A stretch of DNA of 64,000 bases from Parcubacteria group bacterium (lineage in GTDB: Bacteria > Patescibacteriota > Patescibacteriia > Buchananbacterales > UBA6539): NCBI GenBank assembly GCA_002687175.1, contig NYZP01000001.1, forward strand, positions 78,236 to 142,235. The letters run 5' to 3'. The notes under the pieces are model-generated. The model saw only the letters and a list, made by a program, of their open reading frames with translations, ran no database searches and was not told the DNA's origin. Shown here piece by piece: positions 1,079-64,000 of this stretch. The position numbers and the translations under genes are program-made. Every line of letters begins with the position of its first letter. Within the stretch, counting starts at the first letter, position 1.

Positions 1079-1090
1079 TATTTTTTTAAT

Positions 1091-1184: not shown

Positions 1185-1191
1185 AGTATTG

Positions 1192-2457: not shown

Positions 2458-2471
2458 ATTTTTTATATTTT

Positions 2472-7938: not shown

Positions 7939-8114
7939 AGTAGATATTAAAAAATAAAAATATCAAATCACCTCGACTCTGGCGAAGTAATTTGATAATG
8001 AGTTGAAAATTGTTTTGCAAATTTATTCATAATATTAATAAATTATCACAGTTAATAAAAACTGTCAAATTAAAGAAAAAAGCGGAAACTTGTTAGGTAA
8101 CCGCCAAATTAAAA

Positions 8115-8351
8115 CTAAACCATTAAAAATGAACCTTCCGAAACAAATATATCTTTAAGGCCTTCTTTTCCCAAGGCGGTAAGAACTTCTTTTTCTTTTC
8201 CCTTAGGAATAAAAGCTGAAGCGATAAAATCGCTACTACCAATTTTATTTTTATAACCTGTACACTTCCCTCCAAACTTTTTTACTATTCGACTAAAAGT
8301 TGAAAGTCCAAATTTAGCTGGAACCTCACAATAAATATGAAAGTAATTCAA
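8115..8351 (-). pseudogene. degenerate C-terminal fragment of an IS200/IS605-type (Y1 HuH) transposase TnpA
   Basis: NYFHIYCEVPAKFGLSTFSRIVKKFGGK aligns to the Y1_Tnp core DHVHLLVSIPPKLSVSKLVRKLKGRSS, but the HuH motif is degenerate (HIY) and the catalytic Tyr position reads D. There is no ATG: it starts at TTG two codons after an in-frame stop. The N-terminal half is absent. Confidence 0.35.
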
Positions 8352-8399
8352 TGATCATTCCTTCACAGGTTTATTGGGATAAAGAACAGAAAAAAAGAT

Positions 8400-8800
8400 C
8401 AGGAGAGGAAGAGAAGGGCCCCCGATCTCGGCTGCGGTATTATTGAGTGAATTTGCCGCGTATTGGTGTGGCTAGGTTGTGAAGTTAGGCTTCATCACCC
8501 ATCGGCCTCGGAACACTACTTCGGTACTGCCTTCGGCTTCCGATCTTCTTCATTCGTTGGTGTTCTCGATGGTCGTGCTTCCGCGAATGGCCGCGAAAGC
8601 GAAACAGAGTTCCTTCATGATATACTCCTTTCAGGAGGTTTTGAACCGAAGCTCTAATCATGAACTGAGTATACTCATCCCTTCTTCTTGTTTCCGTCAC
8701 CGGGAAAAATTGTCTTCCTGACAGCCTAGCTGCCTCCTCAATTCCCCTATCGGAAAGAGTCAAGTCAAATAGATTTACACGCCTTAAAAAAATGTTATCA
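8400..8800. ncRNA. candidate structured non-coding RNA (unclassified), ~50% GC
   Basis: No ORF over 110 aa in any frame. The region is dense in UUCG-type (cttcgg x3) and GNRA-type (gcgaaagc) tetraloop hairpins. It is bracketed by the gap terminator at 8826-8850 and the TnpA fragment. I could not match the RNase P, tmRNA or SRP conserved boxes by eye. Confidence 0.25.
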
Positions 8801-8825
8801 TAAAAAAATTTATTTATCAAGAATC

Positions 8826-8850
8826 AAAAACCCCCACCAAACTGGTGGGG
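8826..8850 (-). terminator. Rho-independent (bidirectional) terminator downstream of gap
   Basis: CCCCCACC-AAAC-TGGTGGGGGG, flanked by a T-run on both strands. Confidence 0.65.
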
Positions 8851-8868
8851 GGTTAATTTTTATAAAAA

Positions 8869-9891
8869 TTATTTAGTCAACCGACCAACTTGCTCTGCCA
8901 TTTCGGTCAGTCTTAAACTATAAGCGTATTCATTGTCATACCAAGCCAAAATTTTAACTAAATTTCCGCCAACCACTCTGGTAAACTCTAAATCAACAGT
9001 AGCCGAATATGGATTACCAATATAATCTGAGGATACTAAAGGTTTAGACGAGACCGCTAAAATATTTTTGTAAAGTGGATGTTTAGTAGCTGTTTTAAAT
9101 TCATCATTAATTTGTTTAACCGTCACTTTTTTGCGCTTTAGAACTGCCGTAATGTCGGACAATGACCCGGTAATGGTTGGGACCCGAATGGCAATACCGT
9201 CAAACATGTTTTTTACTCCGGGCACCACTTTAGTGGTGGCTTCGGCTGCACCAGTGGTAGTAGGAATCATGTTAAGTGCCGCTGCTCTGGTTCTTCTCAA
9301 ATCCTTATTTGGACCATCAACTAAATTTTGGGTTGAGGTATAGGAGTGAATAGTGGTCATCAAAGCTTTTTCGACTCCAAATTTAGATTCTAAAACTTGA
9401 ATCACTGGTGAAATACAATTAGTGGTACAAGAAGCCATAGAAACAATATCGTCACAACTATCTTTCTTAACACAGTCACCAGTATGCTTAGTGCCATAAA
9501 CTAAAGTCTGAGTATTGTCTTTAGCCGGGGCGGAAATGATAATTCGTTTAGCTCCAGCTTTTAGGTGTCCGCTGGCATCTTTCTTGGTTTTAAATCTCCC
9601 GGTACATTCCAGCAACACCTCAACGGCAAATTTCTTCCAAGGTAATTTAGCTGGTTCAGCTTCATGAAATACTAAATATTCTTTGCCATCAATTTTAATA
9701 CCATTTTTAGTGGGCAGAACTTTTCGATGATACAAGCCATAGGCGGTGTCATACTGTAATAAATGGGCCAATAACTTATTATCCATTAAATCGTTAAGCG
9801 CCACCACCTCTAAATTTTTATTTTCTAAAGCTGCTTTAAAAGTCGCCCGGCCAATCCGACCAAAACCATTAATTGCAATTTTTGTTACCAT
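8869..9891 (-). CDS. gap: glyceraldehyde-3-phosphate dehydrogenase
   Basis: INGFGRIGR Rossmann motif and the active site ASCTTNC. 340 aa. Confidence 0.95.
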   Translation of the reverse strand: MVTKIAINGFGRIGRATFKAALENKNLEVVALNDLMDNKLLAHLLQYDTAYGLYHRKVLPTKNGIKIDGKEYLVFHEAEPAKLPWKKFAVEVLLECTGRFKTKKDASGHLKAGAKRIIISAPAKDNTQTLVYGTKHTGDCVKKDSCDDIVSMASCTTNCISPVIQVLESKFGVEKALMTTIHSYTSTQNLVDGPNKDLRRTRAAALNMIPTTTGAAEATTKVVPGVKNMFDGIAIRVPTITGSLSDITAVLKRKKVTVKQINDEFKTATKHPLYKNILAVSSKPLVSSDYIGNPYSATVDLEFTRVVGGNLVKILAWYDNEYAYSLRLTEMAEQVGRLTK

Positions 9892-13435: not shown

Positions 13436-14428
13436 TCAGGTCAAGCTACGCTTTTGGTGGTTAGTCTTTCGGTTTGTCGCGGCCGGCGGTGGCGCGACGG
13501 CCTGCTCGCTTGCCTCCATCTTCTGACCGAGGAATAACTTCCTCCTCGCAGGCGATGACCGGCGCGGATTCATCGCCTTCGGCCGGGGTTCTTCGTTGGC
13601 GGACTCGAGGCGGGCTTTGATCTCCCGCAACTGGTCAGTCATCTGTCCTTCAACCACCTCGGCTTCCGGTTGCAGACTTCCAACAATCGAACCGTCGGGC
13701 ATTGTCTTCCGAACATTGAAGCTACCATCGGCCAGAATATCGATCGTCGCCTGGAGGATCTTTTCCGTCGGCTCCCGAATGATCAGCGCCGTCGACAACT
13801 TGTGCTGCGGTCCGCTGATGACCACAAACGTGGTGACACCACGACGATAGTCATGCTCGAAACGAACGCGTCCGTCAGACTTGCTTCTCTTGGCCTGCGG
13901 AAAAAACTCGACGCTTCCCTTAGTGACAGTTGCTTCGGGCCAGGTCCAAGTGTACAAATTGAGCGAGATGTCCTTCTGCTCTTTGGACGGATTGCTCAAC
14001 ACCACCTCGGTATCGGTGCCAATCCCGACAATCTGCACTTTGGCCCTTCCGAGAAAAGCTGCAGCCATATATTTCTTACTAGCCGTAACTTTTTCCTCGC
14101 AGCCTTTAATGACATCGTCTAAGAGCTTTGGGTCACCGTTGTCGTCCTCATCCAACTGCTGGTACGCCTTACGGTAAGTTTCAAGGTTAGCCCGGGCGTC
14201 GTTCAGCGCGTTAAAGGCATCAATGACCGTCGTACGACAGTCTTTGACCGGCATTGCCCCCAGCGTATTAACGACCAGACATGCTTGTTCACTTTCCGTG
14301 CCGACCGACAGATCTTCTAGATCTGTTAGCGGCGTTGCCACCTTGACCGAATTCAAGGTTTCAAAAACCCTTTTTGGCGGACCTGATGGTTTCTGGCTGC
14401 GGTTTCTTTCGCCACGCTGTGAAGACAT
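13436..14428 (-). CDS. hypothetical protein, high-GC (~55%) foreign-looking gene
   Basis: Start reassigned to the ATG at 14428, which has a strong SD (AAGGAGGAGG, 5 nt spacer). 330 aa with no recognisable domain. GC is clearly above the flanks. Confidence 0.6.
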   Translation of the reverse strand: MSSQRGERNRSQKPSGPPKRVFETLNSVKVATPLTDLEDLSVGTESEQACLVVNTLGAMPVKDCRTTVIDAFNALNDARANLETYRKAYQQLDEDDNGDPKLLDDVIKGCEEKVTASKKYMAAAFLGRAKVQIVGIGTDTEVVLSNPSKEQKDISLNLYTWTWPEATVTKGSVEFFPQAKRSKSDGRVRFEHDYRRGVTTFVVISGPQHKLSTALIIREPTEKILQATIDILADGSFNVRKTMPDGSIVGSLQPEAEVVEGQMTDQLREIKARLESANEEPRPKAMNPRRSSPARRKLFLGQKMEASEQAVAPPPAATNRKTNHQKRSLT

Positions 14429-14695
14429 AATGCCTCCTCCTTTTTTGACCCACATTAGGGTCTGTCTAAGAACATTCTATCCCGGCACACAAGCGGCCAA
14501 AATAGGTTAACAAAGTAACAATATATCATAGCATATCTTTACAAATATGTCAATAGCAAACAAAATTAAACCTTTAGACTAATACTTAATTGACATTATC
14601 TAATTAAAGCTATAAAATACTCTTAGTTTTTAACAAAAAACAACTTGTCGCCCTTTTGATTAATAGGATCATTTGATCTTTGGAGGATAGAACCA

Positions 14696-15007
14696 ATGTG
14701 TCAGAATCATACAGATTCCGCCGGCCAATCAGTCATCATTGATCTGCCTGGCCGAATTACCAAAAATAGATGTACTAAATGTGAAAAGGATTTAAGCTAT
14801 CTCTTTGCTGACATCAGAAATCGTTCAATTGACCCACCAGAACATTGCCCAGCATGCGGATCTCCTTTAGCGGGAAGGATTACCGAAATTGTCTGGCGTT
14901 GTGGTCATTGTGATGAAAGAATTGTTGACCCCGTCAAACAAAAATCCTGCACCAAGTGTGGCAAAAATCTTAATTTTTCTCCCCCGGAAAACACCCCAGA
15001 GGAGTGA
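14696..15007 (+). CDS. small multi-zinc-ribbon protein (3 CxxC pairs)
   Basis: CTKCEK, CPACG, CGHCDE and CTKCGK. The SD GGAGGA sits 8 nt upstream. Confidence 0.5.
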   Translation: MCQNHTDSAGQSVIIDLPGRITKNRCTKCEKDLSYLFADIRNRSIDPPEHCPACGSPLAGRITEIVWRCGHCDERIVDPVKQKSCTKCGKNLNFSPPENTPEE

Positions 15008-15073
15008 TCCTATAAATTCGAAAAAAGCAAAGAGGCTTATTACTCGGTACAAGCCTCTTTTTCTTTTAAAAAA

Positions 15074-15940
15074 TTATTCAACGCGCATATAAGAAGTAAT
15101 ATCTAAGATATCAACTTCCGGCAATACCTGTATTTCATTAATTGTCGGCAATGATTCATACCAACGCATTTCAACTGTTCTGGTCTCGCCCGATAAAAAT
15201 TGATCCAAGGTGGTATAATTAGCAGCCACTATTTTTTGACCGCTTAGCAAAACAATATAAATTCCGGTTTGCCAATAACTAAAGCCGCTCTTGTTTGACA
15301 CCTCAAAATTTAAAGTGCTAATTGGTAATTCACCTTTAATACCGGATTCACGAGCTGCTTTGAAATCAGTTTCACCAACCACAAATCTTAATCTTGGTTC
15401 AGCAAATTCGTTAAAACCAAGATAGCGCCGCCATTTAACATCAGCTATCCTTAAAACCGGATTTCCTGACAACACTTCTTGACCAAAGATGGCCACAAAT
15501 TTTGTTTCGTTTGGATAAACGAAACTTCTTTTTTCCGCGATAACCTTACCGCCGGATATTAATTGAAACAATACGTCAGTCGCCACCCATTTTTCATTAC
15601 TATTTTGCACTTGAGCTATAAAATCAAAACGCTTTTCACGACCATCAACCGCATCAAAACTGACAATCTTTAACTCTCTTGGTTTATTGACCTCATGAAA
15701 ATACTCATAATTAATAGCGTCCGTAGTTAAAAGTGATAATGTTTGTTCTAACTCTTTATCTTCCACAAATAAAATAATTGAAGCCCGAAATATACTAAAA
15801 CCAAACAAAGCCACAATTAAAGCAACCAGCAGAGCTACTAATAGCCTTCGTAATTGTAATTTATGAGTTACGTACCAATAGCTAATTTTAAGCTGAAAGT
15901 TACTAACTTTATTTGGTTGATTAAGATTTTCCGTTGTCAT
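15074..15940 (-). CDS. membrane-anchored hypothetical protein (single N-terminal TM)
   Basis: 288 aa with the hydrophobic segment LLVALLVALIVALFGFSIF. No recognisable domain. Confidence 0.5.
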   Translation of the reverse strand: MTTENLNQPNKVSNFQLKISYWYVTHKLQLRRLLVALLVALIVALFGFSIFRASIILFVEDKELEQTLSLLTTDAINYEYFHEVNKPRELKIVSFDAVDGREKRFDFIAQVQNSNEKWVATDVLFQLISGGKVIAEKRSFVYPNETKFVAIFGQEVLSGNPVLRIADVKWRRYLGFNEFAEPRLRFVVGETDFKAARESGIKGELPISTLNFEVSNKSGFSYWQTGIYIVLLSGQKIVAANYTTLDQFLSGETRTVEMRWYESLPTINEIQVLPEVDILDITSYMRVE

Positions 15941-34960: not shown

Positions 34961-36763
34961 ATGAAGAGATTGATTGTGATGGCGATGCTTTTAACGTTGG
35001 TTAGCTCGTCCTGCGCAGCTCAACGAGGGCACTGGAAACCAACGACCAGACAGTACCGGTCTCCGCAAGGGTTTGTTCAGGTCTCTCTTGGAGGCGTTGA
35101 ACAAACTGTAGTGGCCGGTAGTAGAAACATTCGGCTAACCTGGCTAAACTTTTCCAATCACTATGATTGGGGTCAAGACATTACCTCTATTCGGTTAAGA
35201 GTGGAAACCGATGGTGATGTAGTTAATTGGTTGCACGACTTTAGTCTGTATACCGACGACGGCAGACAACTCAGAACAACTAATGATCCTGACGCTGATA
35301 TCGCGGCCGGGGTTGACCGAGAGTACGGCTGGGTCCAATTTGATCTTGACCCTGATGGTATTCCACAGTTTATTGATAGTGATGGTAAGTTGTCACTGTA
35401 CGTTACATTTGGTGTCAGCCCGGGTATCAATGACAACACCTCGATCAAAGCTGTTCTTCATCTCCGGCAGATCACCTTTAAGCCTGTAGACAGACGTCCA
35501 GCCAGGATCACTCCGGCCCGCAGATTAGTAGGCCCGGTGGTTACTGTCCTTGAAAAAGGTCATCTGTCCATTAGCAAAAAAGTGGATACTCCAAATCATT
35601 CTCTGCTGCCGGGATCAACAAATGGCATCACTGCTATGCGGCTCAACCTACTGGCGATTCATGAGAACATTTGGTTGGAGACCTTGCCTGTATACTTTGG
35701 CAAGCTCAATGATGGTGGACCAGATCAGGTGAGGCTCCTTTCTATCTATCGAGATGCAGAATTGATTATCCAGAATGAGCCTACCATGATGGATAATGTG
35801 TCCGATGCGGTATTCGATTATTTACGCCGAACCGGGCGTGATGATATAATTGCCCGCATCGAAGCAGGTTACATACCTACCAATGCCAGTGGTGGTATCG
35901 ACTTGGGATCAAGATCTATCTTCTTACCGCAAGATGAGGTTGTGACTTTAACAATAAAAGTTGACACCTCTGACTCTAACCAACGTCTTGGTTCAATTGG
36001 TGAATCTGGCCAGGGTTTCAATCTTTATATCCCTGGAGAAGAGATTATCGCTAAAGGTGAATTGTCCGGTAGAACAGTTGAGGTAGTCGATGAGGCTTCC
36101 TCCAGCGACTTTCACCTGTTTAGGTCGGTACCATACGTCGCCACCAACGATCTGCTTTCGTCTGGCGGAGTTCCGGGAGGAACAATTGCTGCGGGAATTG
36201 AGCAAATAAAACCGCTCTACGCCTTTGGCATCACCGCTGACTCGTCTGGTGATCTCGGCTTAGGAAGGTTGTCATTTGCCGTTCGGGCAGACAACGTCGG
36301 CTTAGGCAATCTTCAGGTGATTGATCAATTGGGCCAGGTCATTGGCGAGGGATTCGTGGCGGAAAATCCAGACGGAGAATTTATCCTCGATGACGATACG
36401 GTTGTCGTGGTTGATTTCTTCGAGCCTTATACGGTTCCGGCCGGGACAACAAAGGTTCTGACATTAGTCGCCGATATTGAGTGCACTCAAGCTAATGGCT
36501 GTGCTAGCTCAAATAGCGAGGGTAGTGTGTTGTCAGTCCAACTACTCGGTGATCCTGCCTTTCCTGAACTACTCCCTGGGACCTATAACGAAGTCGCCGG
36601 CCAAAGTTGGTTCATCTGGACTGACTTTACCTGGACTCCCGTATTGCAAATTGCCCACGAAGATGTTCTTACTATGCCGCAATGGACTAACGGCTATCGA
36701 GTGATGACTTTTATCGGCAACACTCTGCCGCCAAGGTCCACACCTGTGACTTTCTTACGCTAA
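34961..36763 (+). CDS. large secreted protein (possible lipoprotein), high-GC island gene 1
   Basis: Signal peptide MAMLLTLVSSSCAAQ. 600 aa at ~50% GC, with no recognisable catalytic motifs. Confidence 0.6.
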   Translation: MKRLIVMAMLLTLVSSSCAAQRGHWKPTTRQYRSPQGFVQVSLGGVEQTVVAGSRNIRLTWLNFSNHYDWGQDITSIRLRVETDGDVVNWLHDFSLYTDDGRQLRTTNDPDADIAAGVDREYGWVQFDLDPDGIPQFIDSDGKLSLYVTFGVSPGINDNTSIKAVLHLRQITFKPVDRRPARITPARRLVGPVVTVLEKGHLSISKKVDTPNHSLLPGSTNGITAMRLNLLAIHENIWLETLPVYFGKLNDGGPDQVRLLSIYRDAELIIQNEPTMMDNVSDAVFDYLRRTGRDDIIARIEAGYIPTNASGGIDLGSRSIFLPQDEVVTLTIKVDTSDSNQRLGSIGESGQGFNLYIPGEEIIAKGELSGRTVEVVDEASSSDFHLFRSVPYVATNDLLSSGGVPGGTIAAGIEQIKPLYAFGITADSSGDLGLGRLSFAVRADNVGLGNLQVIDQLGQVIGEGFVAENPDGEFILDDDTVVVVDFFEPYTVPAGTTKVLTLVADIECTQANGCASSNSEGSVLSVQLLGDPAFPELLPGTYNEVAGQSWFIWTDFTWTPVLQIAHEDVLTMPQWTNGYRVMTFIGNTLPPRSTPVTFLR

Positions 36764-36834: not shown

Positions 36835-36980
36835 TAAAAGTAAAATTTTATATATCTTGACTAAACAGTAATTTTTTAGCTATTATGTGATTATCTTGGC
36901 TTTGTGGCCAAGACAAGAGCTCCTTGAAATTTTTTTGCTCAGAAATGAGCCTCAAACCCCACTTTAACAGGAGAACGCTA

Positions 36981-38645
36981 ATGAACAGCAGAATGAGTAG
37001 TAATATGATGTGCGCTGGAATTGCAACGATCGCGATCGTAACACTTTTGCTATCCAACGCTCAAGCCGAAGACTATGCAATGGATGAAGGTAACAAAATA
37101 CAGTTGTTAAATGTCAGTCTCTGGCTTGATCAACCTAGCTGGGATCCTACTGGCCAAACCTTGGCTTGGTTACAACAAGAATCATCTGGTGCGTGGGTAT
37201 TTGAATTGTGGATTTCCGATTTAACCAATCCCGGAAATGAGGTAAGATTTGTTCAAGCAACCGAGGAAATTCGGAATTCACCAATTGCTTGGTCACCAAA
37301 TAGCCAGTTCATTCTCTACACCACCAAAGCCTTGCAAACTAATCCGCTGCTAGACAGGCCTTCAATTGGTAGGGCTAGCGCCATAACACCTGATACTTTT
37401 GACAATGGTTTTATACGTCCTGACGATTTTGGTTTTGCCAATGATTGTTATGACGTTAGAGATCCGTCTATTGTTTTAACCTCTTCCGGTTATAAACTAA
37501 TAGTGTCAATTATATCTTGGTGCGATGGACCAGTTTATTCCGAAGGAATCTTCGCCATGGATATTAATGATTCGGCTGTACCGAATCTGGCTTCGGTGGT
37601 GAAAATTCTTAATACGTCCAATCTGTTTGTAAATTCAGTATTATCACCTGATGGTGACACCTTGCTGGTTGAACAGCCTTGGACGCCTACAAGTCGTCGC
37701 CTTTTCGCGATTGAAGGGATCGCTGATGTTCTTAGCGGATCAACTCAGCCAATTACTGGTATAGGGGCTAATCCACTCGTTCATCTTCTGAACCCAGAAG
37801 ATACTTACGCTACTAATCCTCAAGCATCGCAAGACGGATCATTAATTTTCTACACCGTTGATATTACTGGTACTTTCGATGAGTCTGACCCAGGTACTTA
37901 CGCAAGTTCTGACCATGACATTGCAGTTGTCAAACGTGAGGATGCGATTGTTGATATTCCAAATCCTAGGTTTCTGAATAGTGATGGTCATCAAAAAGCC
38001 CTTCATTCTGCAGATGGTGGCACAAGATTCGCTTTTGTAGACGTCAACTTTACAACGGGAGTATCGTTGAACCTAGGGACTCTGAATATATCAACAACGA
38101 TCTTTGTGGATCAATCTGGGGTGTCTGCAGAAGAGATCATTCTTGAAGATGGATCTGGATTGAGGCTTGTTTTGCCAGCCGGCACGACAATTGGCGGCAT
38201 TGCTATTCCGGGCGATGGCTTAATTACCATTACGGTCTACACGCCGATAACCCCGTTTCAGGAATTAGCCTTGGCAGACCTCGCAGGTGTAAAATTGACC
38301 AGGTTGTTCGGTCCCAACGGGATTACCATTACTCCACCACAAGGATCAACGGCTACTCTGACTGTTCGCTACACTGATGCCGAGATTCTTGGCTTGGACG
38401 AGTCAAATCTCAATATCGTCGAGTATGGTAATGGGCCACCTCTTACCTTAACGGTAGTTTCTCGAGACTTGGTTAACAACACTCTAACCGTTGAAATCAC
38501 TGGCTTCTCCAAGTTCGCATTGGCTGATGGTTTTATTAGGCCCCCTGGTGTAGGTATGCCGATTTCCCCTTGGTCAATGGCAATTTTGATCCTGGTGATC
38601 ATCGTATTCAGTGCTGTGTTAATCAAACAAAAATCACCTGCTTAG
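36981..38645 (+). CDS. secreted WD40/TolB-like beta-propeller protein with a C-terminal hydrophobic anchor and basic tail (sortase/exosortase-type sorting-signal-like); high-GC island gene 2
   Basis: Start at the ATG at 36981, with SD AGGAGAA. Signal peptide IATIAIVTLLLSNAQA. Repeated IAWSPNSQFILYT, VLSPDGDTLLVE and ASQDGSLIFYTV blades. C-terminus PISPWSMAILILVIIVFSAVLIKQKSPA. Confidence 0.6.
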   Translation: MNSRMSSNMMCAGIATIAIVTLLLSNAQAEDYAMDEGNKIQLLNVSLWLDQPSWDPTGQTLAWLQQESSGAWVFELWISDLTNPGNEVRFVQATEEIRNSPIAWSPNSQFILYTTKALQTNPLLDRPSIGRASAITPDTFDNGFIRPDDFGFANDCYDVRDPSIVLTSSGYKLIVSIISWCDGPVYSEGIFAMDINDSAVPNLASVVKILNTSNLFVNSVLSPDGDTLLVEQPWTPTSRRLFAIEGIADVLSGSTQPITGIGANPLVHLLNPEDTYATNPQASQDGSLIFYTVDITGTFDESDPGTYASSDHDIAVVKREDAIVDIPNPRFLNSDGHQKALHSADGGTRFAFVDVNFTTGVSLNLGTLNISTTIFVDQSGVSAEEIILEDGSGLRLVLPAGTTIGGIAIPGDGLITITVYTPITPFQELALADLAGVKLTRLFGPNGITITPPQGSTATLTVRYTDAEILGLDESNLNIVEYGNGPPLTLTVVSRDLVNNTLTVEITGFSKFALADGFIRPPGVGMPISPWSMAILILVIIVFSAVLIKQKSPA

Positions 38646-41614: not shown

Positions 41615-42523
41615 CTACTTGTTGACCTTTTTCCAGTCAGTGATCGCGAAGCGACCGAAATGTCCACGTTTGGCTGGCCGGAAATCGCACAAGCCGACTT
41701 TTTTGCCGGCGGTGGTTATCAGTTCCGCCACCTTGCCTTCGTCGATCTCGCCCAAATCGATAGTCATGGTGTATCTGAAGCTCCAAATATCAAACCGCGG
41801 CCGAACAATACAGACCGCAATGTTGTTTTGGGCCAAAACACCACGACGGCAGTCGGTTATCCAACCTTCACCGTCTTGGGTATTTTCCTCTTGCAGATCA
41901 GTCAACGGAAATTCCGGTTCCAGAATCTCCAAGAAACTGTAGAGAGTAGTCGTACTGGCCGTCGATATCTGCTTTTTGCCGTTCTTAACGCTTCGGCCGG
42001 CTTCTACCAGGCAAGCCAAAAAGTTAACCGAGGGCATTACTACCGGCCCCAGATCTCCTTCTTTCACGGGTACAAAGTTCTGTGCCCGGTAAACTCTGGT
42101 CCGGGCAACGTCTGATGCCGGACCATCTTTCTTGACTGGCGGATGAACGCCGGTCCGCAAACCTTCGAGTGTCGCGTCGGTCAACGGGTTCATTAACAAC
42201 GGCGACGAACCTTTGATTGTAACCTCAATGGTTTCAGTCTTGATTTGCGCCGAGGTAAAAACAAACGGCGCCTTTACCGGTTCCGTCGCGGCATCTTTGC
42301 TGTTACCGTTTCCCGCCGTTTTTTTTGCGGCTGCCTTGCTGGCGGCCGACGTTTTGGCAGCGGCTTTCTTCTTTGCCGCTCGCCTTTTTGGCGGTGCTGC
42401 AGTTCCTACTCCTCCATTACCTTCATTTTTGTCTTTTCCCGCAACCAAATCTCCTTTTTCGTTTTTGTGATCAAGTTTATTATTAAATTGATCACCCGTG
42501 TTTTGCCATGTCAAAAGGACCAT
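41615..42523 (-). CDS. hypothetical protein with a histone-H1-like K/A-rich N-terminal tail and a ~200-aa unknown C-terminal domain; high-GC island gene
   Basis: PPKRRAAKKKAAAKTSAASKAAAKKTAG. ~52% GC. No recognisable domain. Confidence 0.55.
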   Translation of the reverse strand: MVLLTWQNTGDQFNNKLDHKNEKGDLVAGKDKNEGNGGVGTAAPPKRRAAKKKAAAKTSAASKAAAKKTAGNGNSKDAATEPVKAPFVFTSAQIKTETIEVTIKGSSPLLMNPLTDATLEGLRTGVHPPVKKDGPASDVARTRVYRAQNFVPVKEGDLGPVVMPSVNFLACLVEAGRSVKNGKKQISTASTTTLYSFLEILEPEFPLTDLQEENTQDGEGWITDCRRGVLAQNNIAVCIVRPRFDIWSFRYTMTIDLGEIDEGKVAELITTAGKKVGLCDFRPAKRGHFGRFAITDWKKVNK

Positions 42524-54984: not shown

Positions 54985-55102
54985 GAAGACATTTTATCAT
55001 AATTGTTTAAAGCCCGCCAAAGGCGGGTCCTCCTTCCTGATCGTCCTCTGGCGGTTGACGAAAAAAAACCCGCTCTTGATTTCTCAAAAACGGGATGGAT
55101 GA

Positions 55103-55324
55103 CTAACGAACAACTGAATTGTCAAAAGGACATTCCGGGCATTTACTGCCCCCATAACGACGGCGAGTCTGATGACAACCGTGTTTATTTGGCCGTTGAC
55201 CAAAAGGACATTTTTTCTCTTCTGTCTTAGTGGCAGCAGCCACGGCCGTGCTGGTAGCAACTGGTTTCTTAGCCGCTGCCTGTTTTTTCTTTTTATTCTT
55301 GTTTTTTGGAGAATTGTCTCCCAT
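55103..55324 (-). CDS. small basic Cys/His-rich protein (questionable)
   Basis: 73 aa, K-rich N-terminus, CPFG ... HGCH ... CPEC. High GC. It overlaps a plus-strand ORF, so the strand is uncertain. Confidence 0.25.
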   Translation of the reverse strand: MGDNSPKNKNKKKKQAAAKKPVATSTAVAAATKTEEKKCPFGQRPNKHGCHQTRRRYGGSKCPECPFDNSVVR

Positions 55325-55338
55325 AGACCCTCCTTACT

Positions 55339-56172
55339 CTAAGCCGCGATTCCCAGCTCTTCAGTCATCACTCGCTCAACCTCTTTAACCGGATCTTCAG
55401 CCCCGAGAACCTGGCGGCCCATCACTAGGTGATCAGCGCCATCATCTCTGGCTTCTCGTGGTGTGGCAACTCGTTTCTGGTCACCTTTAGCCGCCCCAGG
55501 AGAACGAACGCCTGGTACAACAAACGTCATTTCCGGGTATATCCGTTTCAACTCTTTGACTTCTTCTGGCGAACATACCAGTCCATGGGCACCAGCCTCC
55601 TTGGCGATTCTTGCCAAAGCCATGACTTGATCCCAAGGCTTACGGACGTATACTTCCTCGCAAGTTGCTTCGTCAAACGATGTAAGAACAGTAACTGCCA
55701 AAACTTTCGTTGACGTTCCCTCAAGAGTCTTAACTGCCTCCTCCATCATCGCCTTGCTTCCCGAAGCATGAACCGTTACTGCCCAAGGTTTGTGGACCCG
55801 AATTCGCTTACAGGTGTTCGCGATCGTATTCTTGATATCATGAAGCTTGAGATCCAACATCACCCTTCCATACACTGACAGGTCAGGAAGGACGTTGTCG
55901 AAACCATTGGCGAAGGCGAAGTCATTGACCTTCAGAATACAGCCGGTTGTCCGAAGTTGGTCAAGTGTCGGTAGTATCTCTTCCCAGCTTTTGCCGTCCA
56001 AGGCAACAATGATCGGATTCTTCGCTTCCGCTTCCAAAGTACAGCGCTGCATCACACCCAAATTCTGGATCAGGCAACGCCTGACATCGTGAAGGGTCAT
56101 TCCTGCCCAAACCGGCAACTTAATTCCTTCTTGGGCAAACTTCTGTTGCCAGCCTTGCTGATGGTCGGCCAA
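55339..56172 (-). CDS. pyrF: orotidine-5'-phosphate decarboxylase domain, preceded in the same frame by the C-terminal part of a PyrE domain (UMP-synthase-like arrangement). It has no ATG: the ORF starts at a TTG immediately after an in-frame TGA.
   Basis: IIVALDG, LKVNDFAF, DLKLHDIKNT, VVPGVR and ADHLVMGRQV are OMPdecase motifs. The N-terminal LADHQQGWQQKFAQEGIKL matches the PyrE C-terminal motif LVDRQEGG..EKLAEEGIKL. Confidence 0.7.
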   Translation of the reverse strand: MADHQQGWQQKFAQEGIKLPVWAGMTLHDVRRCLIQNLGVMQRCTLEAEAKNPIIVALDGKSWEEILPTLDQLRTTGCILKVNDFAFANGFDNVLPDLSVYGRVMLDLKLHDIKNTIANTCKRIRVHKPWAVTVHASGSKAMMEEAVKTLEGTSTKVLAVTVLTSFDEATCEEVYVRKPWDQVMALARIAKEAGAHGLVCSPEEVKELKRIYPEMTFVVPGVRSPGAAKGDQKRVATPREARDDGADHLVMGRQVLGAEDPVKEVERVMTEELGIAA

Positions 56173-56652
56173 TCATGGGGCTTTAACATTCAAACCCATT
56201 TCCAGGCACTCCGTGTAGGGAGCAATTTTGCTGGCGCCATCAGTGATGACATCATCCATAATGACAACTTCATCACCACTACTGGGATGACCAATTACCT
56301 TGGCCTTGGTCACCCGCCCTTCCTTGGCCTGCTCACGAATAGTCAAGTAGGGCAGGCCGGTCAACATTGAAAGCGGACCAGCAAAACAGGAAACCGAGTC
56401 AGGGACTTCAACAAACCGACTGACTCCCAATTGCCGAAGTGGTGATTCATATAAACGAGCCAGGTAATCGATCGCCTCTGAATTATCTCTGGCATCACGT
56501 TCGTTGACATAGACGTCAGTCAAACCTCCGCTCTTCACGGGTAAACCTCGACCGTTATCAAACTTCAACAGTCCCCATTCTAACATTTGGCCGATAACGC
56601 CAGCCCGCTCTTCTGGGTAGAGCCATGGTGTTTGTGGAACAGTGTGCATCAC
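56173..56652 (-). CDS. pyrE: orotate phosphoribosyltransferase domain, truncated by an in-frame TGA at 56173-56175
   Basis: LKFDNGRGLPVKSGGLTDVYVN (F.L.SG..S.yY.d) and the PRPP loop VVIMDDVITDGASK. It is in the same frame as, and contiguous with, the pyrF ORF. Confidence 0.6.
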   Translation of the reverse strand: MMHTVPQTPWLYPEERAGVIGQMLEWGLLKFDNGRGLPVKSGGLTDVYVNERDARDNSEAIDYLARLYESPLRQLGVSRFVEVPDSVSCFAGPLSMLTGLPYLTIREQAKEGRVTKAKVIGHPSSGDEVVIMDDVITDGASKIAPYTECLEMGLNVKAP

Positions 56653-56679
56653 AATTTCTCCTTTCGTCTGTTTTCTGAA

Positions 56680-57324
56680 CTAAACAGTCACACCATTAAG
56701 TTCAGCCCAATTTTCTCTCGGCCTAACGGCCTTTGAACCTTCTTTACAATAAGGACACTCTACTTCATCCCACAAGGGAAGTTCACGGTTGATCAACGAA
56801 ATGATCTTCCGACCTTCAATCTCGGTCAGTCCTGAACGATTGACCAAGACCAAAATGTAGGGCAACACCACCGCACCATTGGCAGTTAAAGCAATGATAC
56901 TGTTTTTGGTGGTAGTGCCGGTGACTAGAACATCCCCAACCATCAGGATATATTCACCTTCGGTAACGGGAAAGCGACCAACCGACATTCCTTCATCGTG
57001 AACATGCTTGACCGTAAAACCGGTCTGCTTGTTCATTTGGCGTGCCAATTCGTAAGCCAAAACAACCGCTCCCATGGCTGAGCCCCAAACAGAATTGGGA
57101 TTGACTTTGCCGTCTTGTTGTAATCGCTCAAGCAAATCACCACAAACAGTTGTGCAAACGGATGTCTCGCGAGTGACCAGACGACCGTCAAAGAACCCCC
57201 CGCTGTGCTGACCGTTATTCATCTTGGCGTGAGGCCTTTCAGAACACGCCTCTCCCGCGTACCCCCAATAAGCATGGAGTCCTACAAGATACTCAATCCA
57301 ACCCTTTTGATCCAGCATAGCCAA
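56680..57324 (-). CDS. second PyrE-like type I phosphoribosyltransferase
   Basis: HAKMNNGQHSGGFFDGRL and the PRPP loop YILMVGDVLVTGTTTK. 214 aa, high GC. Confidence 0.55.
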   Translation of the reverse strand: MAMLDQKGWIEYLVGLHAYWGYAGEACSERPHAKMNNGQHSGGFFDGRLVTRETSVCTTVCGDLLERLQQDGKVNPNSVWGSAMGAVVLAYELARQMNKQTGFTVKHVHDEGMSVGRFPVTEGEYILMVGDVLVTGTTTKNSIIALTANGAVVLPYILVLVNRSGLTEIEGRKIISLINRELPLWDEVECPYCKEGSKAVRPRENWAELNGVTV

Positions 57325-57490
57325 ATCTCCTTCAAAAATTGAACTCTAATTAAAAAATTGAAAGGAACACCCCTCCAGTAAGCAGACCTTACTAATTATT
57401 AACAGCTTTGTCAGTGTAAGTTTTGACTTATTTTAGGTAAATTAGTTTAATTTCTAAGAATAATTACTAAAATTTAGTAATGGCCAACCC

Positions 57491-58048: not shown

Positions 58049-60019
58049 ATGGCCCTAGCCGAAGTTACAAAAATAAACATCATTGGACATCAAAAACATC
58101 AAGAAGATTTTTTAGAGGTGTTACAAAATTCTGGTTTTATTCAACTTGCTGATTATTCAGACGAAAATTTGGAAAAATCGAATCTTAATGAACAAATTTC
58201 CGAAGTTGATTATAAACTGGCCGGATTAAAATTTAGTTTAAATTTTTTACAATCTTTTGAAAAAAAGAAAAGTTTATCAGAAAAAATTAATTCCAGGATT
58301 AATTTAAACATATTGGAATTAGAGACCACTGTTCATAATTTTGACCTTGAACAAAAAGTGAAAGATGTTCAAAATATTGAATCAAACATTAATCAAGCAC
58401 ATAATTTAAAAGACAAACTAACTTTAGAACTAAACCAAATTAGTCCCTGGAATAAAATAAATTTTATTCCAACGATTAATGAAAACGCAAAATACCATTT
58501 CAAATTTTTAAGTTCAAACCCAAAGGTTTTTATTAACTTACAGACAAAAATAAAGTCCAACTTTCCTCTAGTAGCTTTAGAAAAAATTGATACAATTGGT
58601 AAAGCTAAAAAAGAAGAAATTTTAAGTGTTGTATTTTTTCAACATGATGTTGAGGAAAAAATTATTGAGCTTTTAAGTAAACTGGATATTAAAATTATTG
58701 ATCTACCAAATCTTGATAAAACTGTTAACGACCGAATCAAAGAAATAAATCAAGAAATCAGTAAGGCCGATGATGACTTAGCTAAATTTAAACTACAAGC
58801 GGAAAAAGTAGCCCTCGACCAAGAAGAATTAAAAATTTCGTTTGATTATTTTACTTGGCAAAAAGAGAAATTAGTTAATCTGGCTAAAGCTGGTAATACT
58901 CAACAAACATTTTTCTTAAGCGGTTGGATTAATAAAAAATCAATCAAACCTCTAGAAAAACAACTGGACAAAATAGCTGATGATTTTGTCATTGAAGAAC
59001 AATCTATAAAAAAAGATGAAGTGGTTCCAGTTATTTTTAACAACAAACTGGCCAAAGATTTTGAATCAATTACCAGCCTCTACGGCTCGCCACAAGGTAA
59101 TGAACCTGATCCCACCCCATTTCTCGCCCCATTCTTTATTTTATTTTTTGGTATGGCAATGACTGATGCTGGCTATGGCTTAATCATGGCCTTGGGTATT
59201 TTGGCAGCTATTAAATATTTAAAAATTCCTCAAGCTAAGCAAAAACTCTTACGAGTATTAATGTGGGGTGGGGTAGCAACATTTGTTTTAGGGGCCTTAA
59301 CTGGTGGCTGGTTCAGTATTGAACTGGCAATCTTACCACCAGCTATTGCCAGTGCTTTAGGATTTTTGAAAGTGATTGATCCAATTGCTAATCCCCTTTT
59401 AATTTTCTATATTTCCTTAGGTTTAGGGGTAACTCAGGTGCTAACTGGACTGGCCATAGATACCTATTGGAAAATAAAAAGTAAACATGTTTTAAAAGCT
59501 GTCACTGGCAGTGGGGCCTGGATGTTGGCAATTATTGCTGGTCTAATTTTCGCTGGCGGGTCAATGGGAGTTTTACCGGCCGTTTTCAGTCAAGTTGGAA
59601 AATGGTTAATCTTTCTGGCGATTGGTTTAATTGTTTATGGTGGAACCAAAAATACCAAAAATGTAATTTTAAAACCAGGACTAGGAATATTATCTTTATA
59701 TGGTGCAGTTGGTTACTTCTCGGACATTCTGTCTTACTCTCGTTTGTTGGCGCTGGGACTTACCACTACCATTATTGGCACCGTGGTCAATATAATTGCT
59801 GGATTGGTATTTGCCATTCCCTACGTTGGTTGGTTAGCTTCCTTAATAATTTTAGTTGGTGGTCACTTATTCAATTTAGCAATTAATGCCTTAGGGGCTT
59901 TTATCCATTCAGCTCGTTTGCAGTTTATTGAATTTTTTCCAAAATTTTTGGAAGGTGGTGGAGAGCCATTCGAACCATTCAAAAAAGAATCTAAATATAT
60001 AAATTTAACTAATAATTAA
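58049..60019 (+). CDS. atpI: V/A-type ATPase subunit I (a)
   Basis: 656 aa. Hydrophilic N-terminal half plus a C-terminal polytopic half containing the conserved Arg in LSYSRLLALGL. Confidence 0.85.
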   Translation: MALAEVTKINIIGHQKHQEDFLEVLQNSGFIQLADYSDENLEKSNLNEQISEVDYKLAGLKFSLNFLQSFEKKKSLSEKINSRINLNILELETTVHNFDLEQKVKDVQNIESNINQAHNLKDKLTLELNQISPWNKINFIPTINENAKYHFKFLSSNPKVFINLQTKIKSNFPLVALEKIDTIGKAKKEEILSVVFFQHDVEEKIIELLSKLDIKIIDLPNLDKTVNDRIKEINQEISKADDDLAKFKLQAEKVALDQEELKISFDYFTWQKEKLVNLAKAGNTQQTFFLSGWINKKSIKPLEKQLDKIADDFVIEEQSIKKDEVVPVIFNNKLAKDFESITSLYGSPQGNEPDPTPFLAPFFILFFGMAMTDAGYGLIMALGILAAIKYLKIPQAKQKLLRVLMWGGVATFVLGALTGGWFSIELAILPPAIASALGFLKVIDPIANPLLIFYISLGLGVTQVLTGLAIDTYWKIKSKHVLKAVTGSGAWMLAIIAGLIFAGGSMGVLPAVFSQVGKWLIFLAIGLIVYGGTKNTKNVILKPGLGILSLYGAVGYFSDILSYSRLLALGLTTTIIGTVVNIIAGLVFAIPYVGWLASLIILVGGHLFNLAINALGAFIHSARLQFIEFFPKFLEGGGEPFEPFKKESKYINLTNN

Positions 60020-60502
<483 letters not shown>

Positions 60503-60629
60503 AATCAATTTTTAATTTATAATTTTGAATTTTAAATCAATTTTTAATAACTTAATTTTTAAAATTAAAAAATTTAAAATTCATTCGAAATTAAAAATTT
60601 AAAATTAATAATTCAAAATTATTAAAATT

Positions 60630-61205
60630 ATGGCTTTAGATGATATTAAAAAAGCTATTTTAGCAGAAGCTGATACTGTTGTAGAAAAGGCTAAAACTGA
60701 AGGCAATCAAAAAATTGCTAAAGTTCAAGCTGACTGGAGTAAAAAAATTGATAACAAAAAGCAAACAATTTTAGCTTCCGCCCAACGAAAAGCCAATCAA
60801 AAAGTTCAACAAACTCAGTTCAAGATTCAGGCTCAAGTACAAACCGAGGTACTTAATCAAAAACAGATACTAATTGACAAAGTATACCAATTAGCTCTAC
60901 AAAAATTAAACAACCTGGATAATGATAAATATGTTGAACTGATGGAAAAATTAATTAATAAGCTACCAGCAGACGAAGGTGAATTGATCTCGGTCAAAGA
61001 TAAAGAAAGTTTATTAGCTAAGGCCTCTCATAAAAGTAATAAAAAATTTACTGTATCAAAAGAAACAGTGAGTGGCAGTGGTGGTTTTATTTTCCGTTCA
61101 AAAGATCTAGAAATCAATGATACTTTTGCTACGTTGGTTAATAATTCTAAAGATGAAACTATTTTGTCAGTTTCTAATTTACTATTTAATGAAAATAGAG
61201 AGTAA
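60630..61205 (+). CDS. atpE: V/A-type ATPase subunit E
   Basis: 191 aa. Coiled-coil N-terminus plus a globular C-terminus, in the canonical operon position. Confidence 0.7.
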   Translation: MALDDIKKAILAEADTVVEKAKTEGNQKIAKVQADWSKKIDNKKQTILASAQRKANQKVQQTQFKIQAQVQTEVLNQKQILIDKVYQLALQKLNNLDNDKYVELMEKLINKLPADEGELISVKDKESLLAKASHKSNKKFTVSKETVSGSGGFIFRSKDLEINDTFATLVNNSKDETILSVSNLLFNENRE

Positions 61206-61208
61206 GTT

Positions 61209-62201
61209 ATGCCCCAAGCCGGATACAACTATGCCTCCGCCAAAATAAGAGCCTTGGAACCAGCAATTTTGGATGTTACGGACATGGAAAGAATGGCTGA
61301 TGCTCCTGATTTTGCTACCGCCTTCAAAGTCTTAAATGACACTGACTACGCTGATAATTTATTAGATGTTGATGCTTTGGAATATCGTCAGGCTTTAAAA
61401 GATGATTATCGTCAACTTTACGATCTACTTAAAGACATTACGCCAAATAATGATCTATTTAAACTAATCTTTATTGAACGTGACATTGTCAATATTAAAC
61501 TCTTGTTTAAGGCTAAATTTTTTGAGGTTGAGGTTGATGCCATGCTAAGAGACAACACTATTTATCAATCTAGTCACTTGAAAGAATTTATTTTTGATAA
61601 AAAAGATAGTGGTCTAGATCAAGATATTAAAGATTTAATCAACAATGTAGAAAAAATTATTGATGAGTCCAGTCGGCCGGATTTTATTGATTCAATAATA
61701 ACTAAGGAATACTTTAGGCTAATAAAAAAAATAGCTAAAAAAATTAACAACCAGTTAGTTGATCAGTTGATCATCAGTCAAATAAACAATGCCAATATCT
61801 TAACTTGGCTACGAGCCAAAAGATTGGGCTTGGCTAAGGAACGACTTGCTGAAAAATTGGTTACCGGTGGTAATATTGATCCAAAAAAACTTATTGATCA
61901 ATATTCTGAAGAAGTTAAAAATATCAGAACTTTAATAAATGTTTATTATGACAAGCAAGTAATTGAGGCTCTTGATAACTACGCCGAGAATAATTTACTG
62001 TTTGAATTTGAAAAAGCTTTAGAAGATTATAAAACAAGAGTTGTCCAGAAAACTCAGCGCATTGCCGCTGGTCCAGAAGTAATTTACGCCTATCACCTAG
62101 CTAAACAAAATGCCGTCGCTAACATTAGGATAATTTTAACTGGTAAATTAAATAATATTTCGGGCGAAGAAATTAAAAAAACTCTTAGACTTGTTAAATA
62201 A
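61209..62201 (+). CDS. atpC: V/A-type ATPase subunit C (d)
   Basis: 330 aa all-helical, in the canonical operon position. Confidence 0.7.
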   Translation: MPQAGYNYASAKIRALEPAILDVTDMERMADAPDFATAFKVLNDTDYADNLLDVDALEYRQALKDDYRQLYDLLKDITPNNDLFKLIFIERDIVNIKLLFKAKFFEVEVDAMLRDNTIYQSSHLKEFIFDKKDSGLDQDIKDLINNVEKIIDESSRPDFIDSIITKEYFRLIKKIAKKINNQLVDQLIISQINNANILTWLRAKRLGLAKERLAEKLVTGGNIDPKKLIDQYSEEVKNIRTLINVYYDKQVIEALDNYAENNLLFEFEKALEDYKTRVVQKTQRIAAGPEVIYAYHLAKQNAVANIRIILTGKLNNISGEEIKKTLRLVK

Positions 62202-62526
62202 TATGAAACTAAAAATTGCAATAATTGGTAGTGGTGATGCGGTTGCTGGTTTTAAAGCAGTCGGCGTTGATGCCATGCCCGTTAAAACTACAGAAGAAGC
62301 CGAGGCTAAAGTAAAGGAAGTTTATGATTCCACGGAATATGCAACCTTGTTTATCACTGAAGACTGGATTGATCAAATAAAAGATTTTTTAGACGAACTA
62401 CCAGCCAAGGCCTTGCCAGCTATTGTGGCAATTCCGTCGCAAGCTGGTTCAACCGGTGCTGGGTTGGATAATTTAAAAAAAATTGTTGAGCAAGCAGTTG
62501 GCTCAGATATTTTATCAAATGAATAA
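62191..62526 (+). CDS. atpF: V/A-type ATPase subunit F
   Basis: 111 aa, starting KIAIIGSGDAVAGFKAVGVDA. Confidence 0.75.
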   Translation: MLNNMKLKIAIIGSGDAVAGFKAVGVDAMPVKTTEEAEAKVKEVYDSTEYATLFITEDWIDQIKDFLDELPAKALPAIVAIPSQAGSTGAGLDNLKKIVEQAVGSDILSNE

Positions 62527-62551
62527 GTAATAAAAATAACTAAAAATAATT

Positions 62552-64000
62552 ATGAGCGAAAAAGCAGGAAAAATAATAAAGGTTGCCGGGCCATTGGTCG
62601 TGGCTTCTGGCATGAAAGGGGCGAAGATGTATGAAGTGGTTCAAGTTTCAGACCAAAAATTAATTGGCGAAATTATTGAGCTTAAAGATGATACTGCCTC
62701 AATTCAAGTTTACGAAGAAACCTCCGGCCTTGGACCCGGCGAGCCAGTTTACCAAACTGGTAAACCATTATCAGTTGAATTAGGACCGGGACTTTTAAAA
62801 TCAATCTATGATGGCATTCAACGTCCATTAAACTTGATCCGTGAACAAGCCGGTGACTACATTACTCGAGGAGTTGAAGTGCCTTCGTTAGATCGTGAAA
62901 AAACCTGGAAGTTCACTCCGGTAGTCAAAGATGGTGATGAAGTCTCAGAAGGTGATATTTTAGGGGAAGTTCCCGAATCAGCAACTATTGTTCATAAAGT
63001 AATGGTACCACCAGGCGTTACCGGCAAAGTAGAAAATATAAAAGCTGGAGATTTTAATATTGTTGAACCAATCGCAAAAGTTGGTGGCAAAAATGTGGCC
63101 ATGCTCCAAGTTTGGCCAATTCGTAAACCTCGTCCAGTTAAACAAAAATTGGTGCCAACCGAACCATTAATTACTGGTCAAAGATCAATTGATACTTTTT
63201 TTCCAGTGGTCAAAGGCGGAGCCGCTTGTATTCCAGGACCATTTGGCTCTGGCAAAACCGTCACCCAGCATCAATTAGCAAAATGGGCTGATGCGGACAT
63301 AATTATCTTTATTGGTTGCGGTGAACGGGGAAATGAAATGACCGAAGTGCTGATTGAATTCCCTGAATTAATTGACCCTAAATCTGGCAAAGCCTTGATG
63401 GAACGAACTGTCTTGATTGCCAACACTTCAAATATGCCAGTAGCCGCTCGTGAAGCTTCTATTTATACTGGAATGACTTTAGCGGAATATTACCGTGACA
63501 TGGGCTATAATGTTGCTCTGATGGCCGACTCAACCTCGCGTTGGGCTGAAGCCTTACGTGAAATGTCTGGTCGACTTGAAGAAATGCCTGGTGAGGAAGG
63601 TTATCCAGCCTATCTTGGTTCACGAACCGCTTCTTTTTACGAACGGGCTGGTTATATTAAATGTTTGGGTAGTGATGACAGTAAAGAGCGAATCGGATCA
63701 TTAACCGCCATTGGTGCGGTCTCCCCTCCTGGTGGAGACTTATCTGAACCAGTTACTCAAAATACCTTACGTGTGGTAAAGGTTTTCTGGGGACTTGATG
63801 CTGCCTTAGCTTACCGTCGTCATTTTCCAGCTATTAACTGGTTAACCAGCTACTCGCTATATATTAAAGATATTGAAGATTATACTAAGAAAAATTATGG
63901 TTCTGATTGGCCAGATATGGTTAGAGAGTCTTTGAACTTACTCCAGGAAGAAGCTAAGCTAGAAGAAATCGTCAGACTGGTTGGTGTTGAGTCGTTATCG
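62552..64000 (+). CDS. atpA: V/A-type ATPase catalytic subunit A, 5' part (runs off the window end)
   Basis: ATG at 62552. [11 protein letters not shown] ... P-loop GPFGSGKT ... [14 protein letters not shown]. Not in the ORF track because it is truncated. Confidence 0.9.

Follow-up and report, generated by a model that had tools for sequence, protein, structure and literature searches.

The stretch of DNA analysed here, a 64-kb segment referred to below as the window, belongs to a marine metagenome-assembled genome (MAG) that NCBI names 'Parcubacteria group bacterium', in line with an earlier suggestion from the letters that the host might belong to the candidate phyla radiation (CPR). Between a gene for a 1011-aa UvrD/PD-(D/E)XK helicase on one flank and a V-type ATPase operon on the other, it includes four minus-strand open reading frames (ORFs) that make up one unit. 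The subject of this work is the gene in the middle of that unit, a fusion of orotate phosphoribosyltransferase (OPRT, PyrE) and orotidine 5'-monophosphate (OMP) decarboxylase (OMPDC, PyrF) interrupted by a stop codon. The unit begins with geneA (56680..57318), which encodes a phosphoribosyltransferase (PRTase) of 212 aa from an ATG at 57318; this start fits those of its homologues, while the ORF list began at a TTG at 57324. Next is an ORF of 158 codons (56173..56649), the OPRT-like N-terminal part of a CPR-type PyrE-PyrF fusion (N-part), closed by a premature TGA at 56175-56173. The third ORF, of 277 codons (55339..56172), is the C-terminal part (C-part). It opens, with no change of frame, at the TTG that adjoins the TGA, and includes the rest of the OPRT fold and a linker (56172 to approximately 56017) followed by a complete OMP decarboxylase domain (56016-55372). 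The fourth ORF is described below. A first-pass annotation of this DNA had seen an OPRT-then-OMPDC fusion split by one in-frame TGA, and had left it between recent inactivation, a TGA that is recoded or read through, and a sequencing error. The strand, the shared frame and a full-length match to intact fusions confirm the fusion, and the alignment of homologues together with the clustering of the lesion makes recent inactivation the best of the three readings.

The 437-aa conceptual protein obtained by joining both ORFs across the stop was used as query, as the first-pass annotation had advised, and the best 120 matches were taken. They comprise 119 full-length homologues and, as the lone exception, the window's own 277-aa product from Tara. 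The conceptual fusion is 58-68% identical, over 97-100% of the query, to uninterrupted Patescibacteria proteins of 426-485 aa (most of them 430-446, with ~436 typical). All named sources of the matches are Patescibacteria (Jorgensenbacteria, Kaiserbacteria, Niyogibacteria, Paceibacterota and Minisyncoccia), and the public annotation of the homologues reads only 'orotidine-5'-phosphate decarboxylase'. Such high full-length identity to more than 100 uninterrupted Patescibacteria proteins identifies a native CPR gene family, and 59 CPR genomes proved to have this OPRT-linker-PyrF architecture when species-representative genomes were scanned. The window gene is collinear with the family through the OPRT-like domain, the linker and PyrF, and agrees with 118 of the 123 columns in which the family is at least 95% conserved. 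The ~436-aa Patescibacteria proteins, such as those from Jorgensenbacteria GW2011_GWA1_48_11 (P0102) and Niyogibacteria (P0043), are thus its true family, with the same linker and motifs; they differ in being single ORFs with the invariant LVVLVDRQQGW, where the window copy has a deletion, a stop and a His in place of Arg. It can be considered a disrupted member. Full-text literature searches did not find a description of a CPR PyrE-PyrF fusion. Genes for a PyrC-like (E. coli-type dihydroorotase-like) and a PyrD-like (dihydroorotate dehydrogenase-like) protein adjoin the fusion in six of the CPR loci (L006, L015, L016, L022, L045 and L091). In L091, from the genome with P0003, which is among the closest intact fusions, the PyrC-like/PyrD-like/PyrEF cluster adjoins TraC-like, VirB4/TraG-like and type IV secretion system pilin-like genes (686-3299 and 14772-15479).

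Over their first ~200 residues the members of the family resemble OPRT. The family profile matches the OPRT domain of the Leishmania UMP synthase (UMPS; PDB 3qw4, E 2e-24) and human OPRT (2wns, E 1e-18), with the phosphoribosyl pyrophosphate (PRPP) loop aligned to human IIEDVVTSGSS and VLVDRQQGW aligned to human LLDREQGG. In the window N-part the PRPP loop is intact (VVIMDDVITDGASK, DDVITDGASK), as in an OPRTase. The N-part scores 28 bits against a PyrE cut-off of 106.8 (TIGR00336 and NF010382 models), and the intact members P0003 and P0001 are similarly low (37-54 bits against PyrE cut-offs of 107-208), which explains why the public annotation is incomplete. These profile comparisons indicate that the N-terminal domain is OPRT-like yet divergent throughout the family.

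The first-pass annotation had called the domain order eukaryote-like. Eukaryotic UMPS does carry OPRT and OMPDC in the same N-to-C order on one polypeptide as the intact CPR proteins, and among PDB entries the CPR OPRT-like domain is nearest to the eukaryotic-type OPRTs (3qw4, 2wns), with which it shares the PRPP loop and (V/L)DR(Q/E)QG. The decarboxylase half, however, is of the proteobacterial PyrF type (E. coli / V. cholerae; 3ldv and 1eix, E ~1e-47), and there is no eukaryotic OMPDC among its best 60 PDB matches, which argues for an independent bacterial fusion; the window copy differs further from UMPS in its broken OPRT domain. The eukaryote-like flavour therefore gives way to a large native Patescibacteria family, and the comparisons suggest that this family is a native, independent bacterial fusion and no eukaryote-like import. 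Bacterial PyrF-PyrE proteins (NF004034 / PRK05500; NC10/Methylomirabilota loci L061-L074) combine the same two enzymes, with domains 30-40% identical to those of the CPR family, but in these the decarboxylase comes first, and the CPR family reaches only 28-43 bits against the NF004034 cut-off of 656. From its domain content, an intact member of the CPR family would act as a bacterial UMP synthase, converting orotate and PRPP to OMP and then UMP.

The PyrF half of the window gene shows every sign of an OMP decarboxylase. The C-part ORF matches PF00215 (OMPdecase) over residues 53-267 with E 3e-42 (145.5 bits, cut-off 27), the PyrF equivalog NF001273 with 206.3 bits (cut-off 193) and TIGR01740 with 155.3 bits (cut-off 92.3). 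It keeps the catalytic DxKxxD motif (MLDLKLHDIKNT) and, in this half, agrees with the family at every column with 95% conservation or more. NCBI lists the identical product as PyrF (MAF13399.1). The decarboxylase ORF had been said to lack an ATG; there is an internal one at codon 25 of the 277. A possible independent start lies at 56116..56130, where an SD-like (Shine-Dalgarno-like) GAAGGA (56130-56125) is followed after 6 nt by a TTG (56118-56116) that would yield a protein of 259 aa. Gene callers chose the TTG at 56118 as the start on three other contigs, and PyrF may be translated from it.

The lesion occupies 56161..56178, where the minus strand reads CCA TGA TTG GCC GAC CAT (P, stop, L, A, D, H) in place of the L-V-V-L-V-D-R of the family. 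Nowhere is the protein more conserved among the 119 homologues than around the stop, where the consensus is ALVVLVDRQQGW (A-L-V-V-L-V-D-R-Q-Q-G-W); the window gene reads A-(gap)-P-stop-L-A-D-H-Q-Q-G-W, with one residue missing. In the column of the stop the homologues have Val (117/119) or Ile (2/119), so that the TGA does not fall on a variable position as had been supposed. Val is present in all 119 in the column where the window gene has Ala, and Arg in all 119 where it has His; this Arg is also found in 2wns, 3qw4, 2yzk and 2p1z. The changes Val to Pro, Val to stop, Val to Ala and Arg to His, plus the loss of one codon, all lie within 7 codons. When the lesion was compared with the DNA of 50 relatives at the same site, the path from any family-consistent ancestor took no fewer than four substitutions, besides a 3-nt deletion, in a space of 27 nt.

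Outside this site the gene shows no comparable damage. Three of its five mismatches at the 123 conserved columns sit in the lesion (permutation p = 0.004). The ratio of N-part to C-part identity is 0.944, against 0.948 +/- 0.038 for the family (rank 63 of 119); measured against the family, divergence is not higher in the N-part than in the C-part. Everything outside the lesion is as conserved as in any family member, which argues that the lesion is recent, and the alignment indicates that it is a recent, local and inactivating change and that the gene is not an old pseudogene. In an AlphaFold2 (AF2) model of an intact member (pLDDT 88.8) the stop falls inside the core strand E154-163, the OPRT fold runs on to approximately residue 197, and the PyrF barrel begins at approximately residue 214. 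The residues that follow the TGA (LADHQQGWQQKFAQEGIKL) continue the OPRT fold, and the same stretch in intact relatives aligns to human OPRT, as expected from the first-pass annotation's assignment of these residues to the C-terminal part of PyrE. With the stop in a core strand and the Arg of (V/L)DR(Q/E)xG replaced by His, the window N-part does not make up a complete type-I PRTase fold.

Several simpler origins of the lesion were considered. A single deletion would still need at least 2-3 substitutions in the first two codons, in addition to Val to Ala and Arg to His. Judged by eye, neither a small inversion nor a compensated frameshift, with ATG ATT read as M-I, leads back to the consensus unless several other changes are added. 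There is no second copy of the lesion 23-mer in the window, at up to 3 mismatches and on both strands, that could have served as a template for a patch.

A fault of sequencing or assembly in a gene that is really uninterrupted is next to impossible. The coverage of individual contigs is low (2.3x and 5.3x), but five assemblies, built from different read sets with different assemblers and 99.97-100% identical in their DNA, all contain the lesion 23-mer: the ENA SPAdes contig ERZ11848503, the Logan contig SRR5321589, ENA ERZ5402418, which has one single-nucleotide polymorphism elsewhere, the MEGAHIT contig ERZ909119 (Tara ERR594290), and the NCBI MAG with MAF13399.1. In addition, several nucleotides are changed and 3 nt deleted in the lesion, which is more than a single miscalled base. 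An identical lesion in five assemblies is not an error, and this disposes of the third of the proposed readings.

Very improbable, too, is that the TGA is decoded, by readthrough, as selenocysteine or through a reassignment of the kind known from codes 4 and 25 in the host or a donor, so that a full-length bifunctional protein is made. The stop does not break the frame and the part behind it is intact, as such decoding would demand. However, TGA terminates genes in this genome: the threonyl-tRNA synthetase ends in TGA 9 residues past its anticodon-binding domain, and DnaE and four other ORFs of the window end in it as well. The search for in-frame TGA in conserved genes that had been recommended found no other in a real gene of the window; the lesion TGA is the sole one with at least 100 open codons on each side, apart from one in an antisense shadow ORF. 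Nothing in the window thus fits table 4 or table 25. Nor does the site resemble that of a selenoprotein. There is no SECIS-like or otherwise stable fold after the TGA: the fold of the 86 nt around and after it is no more stable than that of shuffled sequence (z = -0.74). Every homologue has Val or Ile in this position, and none has Cys, Trp or Gly. An Rfam scan at E <= 1 gave no match and the window has no tRNA genes. The stop is also accompanied by a codon deletion and the loss of an invariant Arg, and a read-through product would still be without the orotate-site Arg, in a core strand that is shortened and Pro-containing. Since TGA stops host genes, no SECIS-like fold follows it and Val stands at the homologous site, recoding is not the explanation.

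There is also only a slim chance that the break is a functional gene fission, in which the 158-aa and 277-aa parts reassemble non-covalently into an active OPRT-OMPDC complex. An in-frame TTG directly follows the TGA, the whole OPRT fold is still encoded over the two ORFs, and evolution of the N-part is not relaxed outside the lesion. The break, on the other hand, cuts a buried core strand in its middle and does not coincide with a domain boundary; the strand is one residue short and has gained a Pro; and the Arg that is invariant in 119/119 members and in solved OPRTases is His. No split at this site was seen in the best 120 matches or in the 59 CPR genomes. Damaged copies of other kinds do exist: one in Sungbacteria (L056, 8430-9050) stops after the OPRT domain and linker and is without the PyrF half, one (L060, 10001-10719) is frameshifted near residue 118, and one in Azambacteria (L077, 7660-8327) has an internal deletion of residues 183-391. 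These indicate that decay of the fusion gene is not unusual in CPR genomes.

The second PRTase reported upstream is geneA, the ORF of which is intact. Its closest known relatives are the Helicobacter-type OPRTase 4paw and the Thermus-type proteins of TIGR01367 (pyrE_Therm). The profile of the geneA family, which is small (35 matches), matches 4paw over nearly its full length with E 5e-21, including a His motif and a C-terminal CPLC that 4paw shares with it. Against TIGR01367 geneA scores E 5e-24 and 84.9 bits, under the equivalog cut-off of 150.25, and matches to the PyrE models are weak for geneA as for the N-part. At codon 128 (56935-56937, minus strand) geneA has GGG, Gly, where 22/22 relatives have the PRPP-loop Glu (LMVGDV as opposed to xxxEDV), so that the loop reads GD and not ED; a single A-to-G transition would suffice for this change. 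Its match to 4paw and its adjacency to pyrF suggest that geneA functions as an OPRTase. In the geneA family His30, His38, Cys188 and Cys191 are invariant, and they may form a His2Cys2 metal site.

The Glu-to-Gly change, unique among 23 sequences, raises the question of whether all of the orotate-to-UMP module is being lost together, with two crippled PRTases and a PyrF that has not yet been struck, in a cell that lives on salvaged pyrimidines. As the first-pass annotation had remarked, the window holds no other genes of de novo pyrimidine synthesis; no PyrC or PyrD homologue was found in it, although such genes stand beside the fusion in some other CPR, and other CPR genomes have truncated or frameshifted copies of the fusion. 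We nevertheless consider such wholesale decay rather unlikely. PyrF is without mismatches at conserved columns, geneA has 7 deviations where its two nearest relatives have 8 and 6, and both ORFs retain strong Shine-Dalgarno sequences and a conserved leader. Of the two acidic residues in the PRPP loop of OPRTases, moreover, the first matters less.

The surroundings of geneA in other genomes bear on what happened at the locus. One relative, L082, is syntenic with the window: V-ATPase operon, small ORF, geneA (49% identical), pyrF, small ORF and UvrD-like helicase (76% identical). Its pyrF encodes a 280-aa type-2 enzyme that is unrelated to that of the window and has no extra PRTase domain. The closest geneA is that of L088/L089 (66% identical in protein and 71% in DNA including the leader), and there it is followed after 40 nt by a third kind of stand-alone PyrF, ~30% identical to that of the window and likewise without an extra PRTase domain. 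geneA thus adjoins pyrF in three genomes (L082 and L088/L089), and a geneA homologue is found ahead of the fusion in 0/80 loci. Because geneA is constant and its pyrF differs among the relatives, the pyrF partner has been replaced, and the synteny indicates that the constant functional unit of the locus consists of geneA and one pyrF gene, whichever it is, and that such replacement has occurred repeatedly.

The composition of the block is distinct, as had been noticed. Its G+C content is 0.496 and 0.487 at 55-57 kb and ~0.36 in the flanks, and the G+C content at third codon positions (GC3) is 0.48-0.52 in the three enzyme ORFs and ~0.29 in host genes, the excess holding at synonymous sites. 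This had been taken as a mark of horizontal acquisition of the island. That idea is only partly borne out: the pyrF-bearing gene differs between syntenic relatives, as expected of a replacement, but geneA and its AT-rich leader are common to the relatives and the locus is GC3-rich there too. The cassettes of L082 and L088 have GC3 of 0.44-0.51, in the case of L082 in a host with 0.19-0.22; geneA homologues in other CPR lineages match the composition of their hosts. For the fusion the anomaly is family-wide: its GC3 exceeds the median of the flanking ORFs in 42 of 51 CPR loci, by more than 0.1 in 21, which suggests lateral mobility. Often no gene within +/-10 kb of the fusion surpasses it in GC3 (loci L002-L060, 59 CPR genomes). 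Together, the GC3 excess and the swapped pyrF genes point to repeated lateral exchange among CPR and not to one recent island. No near-identical donor was found in the databases, where the best match is 68% identical. To look for a mobile vehicle, an intact member was compared by tblastn with 50,697 phage and 72,556 plasmid records; only the PyrF half gave matches, at no more than 42% identity. One IMG/VR contig of 2.9 million encodes a relative of the fusion, 49% identical (L098, IMGVR_UViG_3300027887_000043, 8001-9276).

We consider it probable that the fusion was recently inactivated in its OPRT domain with the PyrF half left intact, and that a redundant domain was shed, by ordinary decay, after the gene had arrived beside geneA. 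On this reading the replacement pyrF of the window's lineage would have arrived as a PyrE-PyrF fusion next to the resident geneA. Its OPRT domain would have duplicated the presumed function of geneA and been redundant on arrival, because geneA is the constant partner of unrelated pyrF genes at the same locus in relatives. The lesion in the core beta-strand and in VLVDRQQGW would then kill the OPRT, cutting it at residue 158 and leaving ~40 residues of the fold on the next ORF. The OMP decarboxylase half would be made alone, from one of two TTG codons (the one next to the TGA, by re-initiation, or the one 18 codons downstream, which has a Shine-Dalgarno sequence in front of it), and whatever OPRT activity remains would be supplied by geneA.

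Some observations count against this account. No intact relative more than 70% identical to the window allele was found, and the ancestral state and the timing are read from distant homologues. The absence of decay in the N-part outside the lesion suits a very recent event and would equally suit continued selection on a split protein. Re-initiation at the TTG after the TGA is weak, as no Shine-Dalgarno sequence is found there. Finally, geneA scores under the curated PyrE cut-offs and may be weakened by its Glu-to-Gly change, in which case the window would hold no source of OPRT activity.

A wider view of the locus can be put forward more tentatively, and we hold it at somewhat less than even. 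The interval between the V-ATPase genes and the UvrD-AddA-like helicase could be a fixed slot, in a lineage of AT-rich marine Parcubacteria, in which a resident Helicobacter-type pyrE with a conserved leader hairpin has successively had three or more unrelated pyrF genes as partners, in cassettes that all remain GC3-rich. The window would then have caught the moment after the CPR-wide fusion had entered the slot and its redundant OPRT had been knocked out, that is, a domain loss or gene fission in progress, and thousands of CPR 'PyrF' proteins would be bifunctional UMP synthases that move horizontally.

The remaining features of the unit concern its expression and its borders, all on the minus strand. 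A candidate promoter lies at 57386..57414, with CTGACA (57414-57409), a 17-nt spacer and TAAGGT (57391-57386). A consensus scan of the window did not pick it up because its -10 box is weak; the block is kept in the relatives L088/L089 (TTGACA-17-TAATGT) and in L082. The 5' leader of geneA contains a hairpin and T-run (57359..57377), found as a terminator-like match in a scan and possibly an attenuator, with equivalents upstream of the geneA homologues in L088/L089 (L088 1-131) and L082 (~5900-6000). The AT-rich leader common to the three relatives includes a TTGACA-like box, a TAAGGT/TAATGT box and the hairpin with T-run at the predicted 5' end of the transcript. This conserved leader may be a pyrimidine-responsive attenuator; no Rfam family matches its hairpin. 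At the other end an intrinsic terminator (55069..55094), an 11-pair stem followed by TTTTTTTT, ends the operon and marks the low-coordinate edge of the GC-rich block. The fourth ORF (55103..55324), preceded by an AAGGAGG ribosome-binding site, encodes a Lys/Ala-rich protein of 73 aa with a C-terminal Cys cluster (CPFG...C...CPEC). It forms a singleton cluster, is present on 11 contigs of the same population, has no Pfam or NCBIfam match and is not beside the fusion in any of 80 other loci.

Plus-strand ORFs at 55-57 kb, including the one at 55003-55230 that had set the start of the block in the first-pass annotation, are antisense shadows of the minus-strand genes. The V/A-type ATPase operon next to the unit is complete (subunits I, c, E, C/AC39, F, A, B and D; 58049-64000, plus strand), and such an operon also adjoins the pyr unit in L082. 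Four further ORFs of the window are GC3-rich relative to the ~0.29 of the host: 13436-14455 (minus strand, 339 aa, 0.62), 34961-36763 (plus strand, 600 aa, 0.47), 36924-38645 (plus strand, 573 aa, 0.39) and 41615-42523 (minus strand, 302 aa, 0.54). They have no Pfam domain except for one weak PD40 repeat, and may represent more foreign or ORFan islands in the genome.

Nothing at this locus is categorically new biology. A tempting lead to stop-codon recoding in a CPR genome is removed, and what takes its place is a documented and datable domain loss after gene replacement. What is useful is the recognition of an un-annotated OPRT domain in a widespread CPR 'PyrF' and of a cassette-like replacement of pyrF beside a conserved pyrE. 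The conserved OPRT-like N-terminal 200 residues of CPR 'OMP decarboxylases' fall below every curated cut-off, and reconstructions in which pyrE is absent may be wrong. The foreign composition of the fusion in most carriers and the swaps of pyrF point to lateral transfer as a frequent event for the final two steps of UMP synthesis, among organisms that are usually described as being without nucleotide synthesis.

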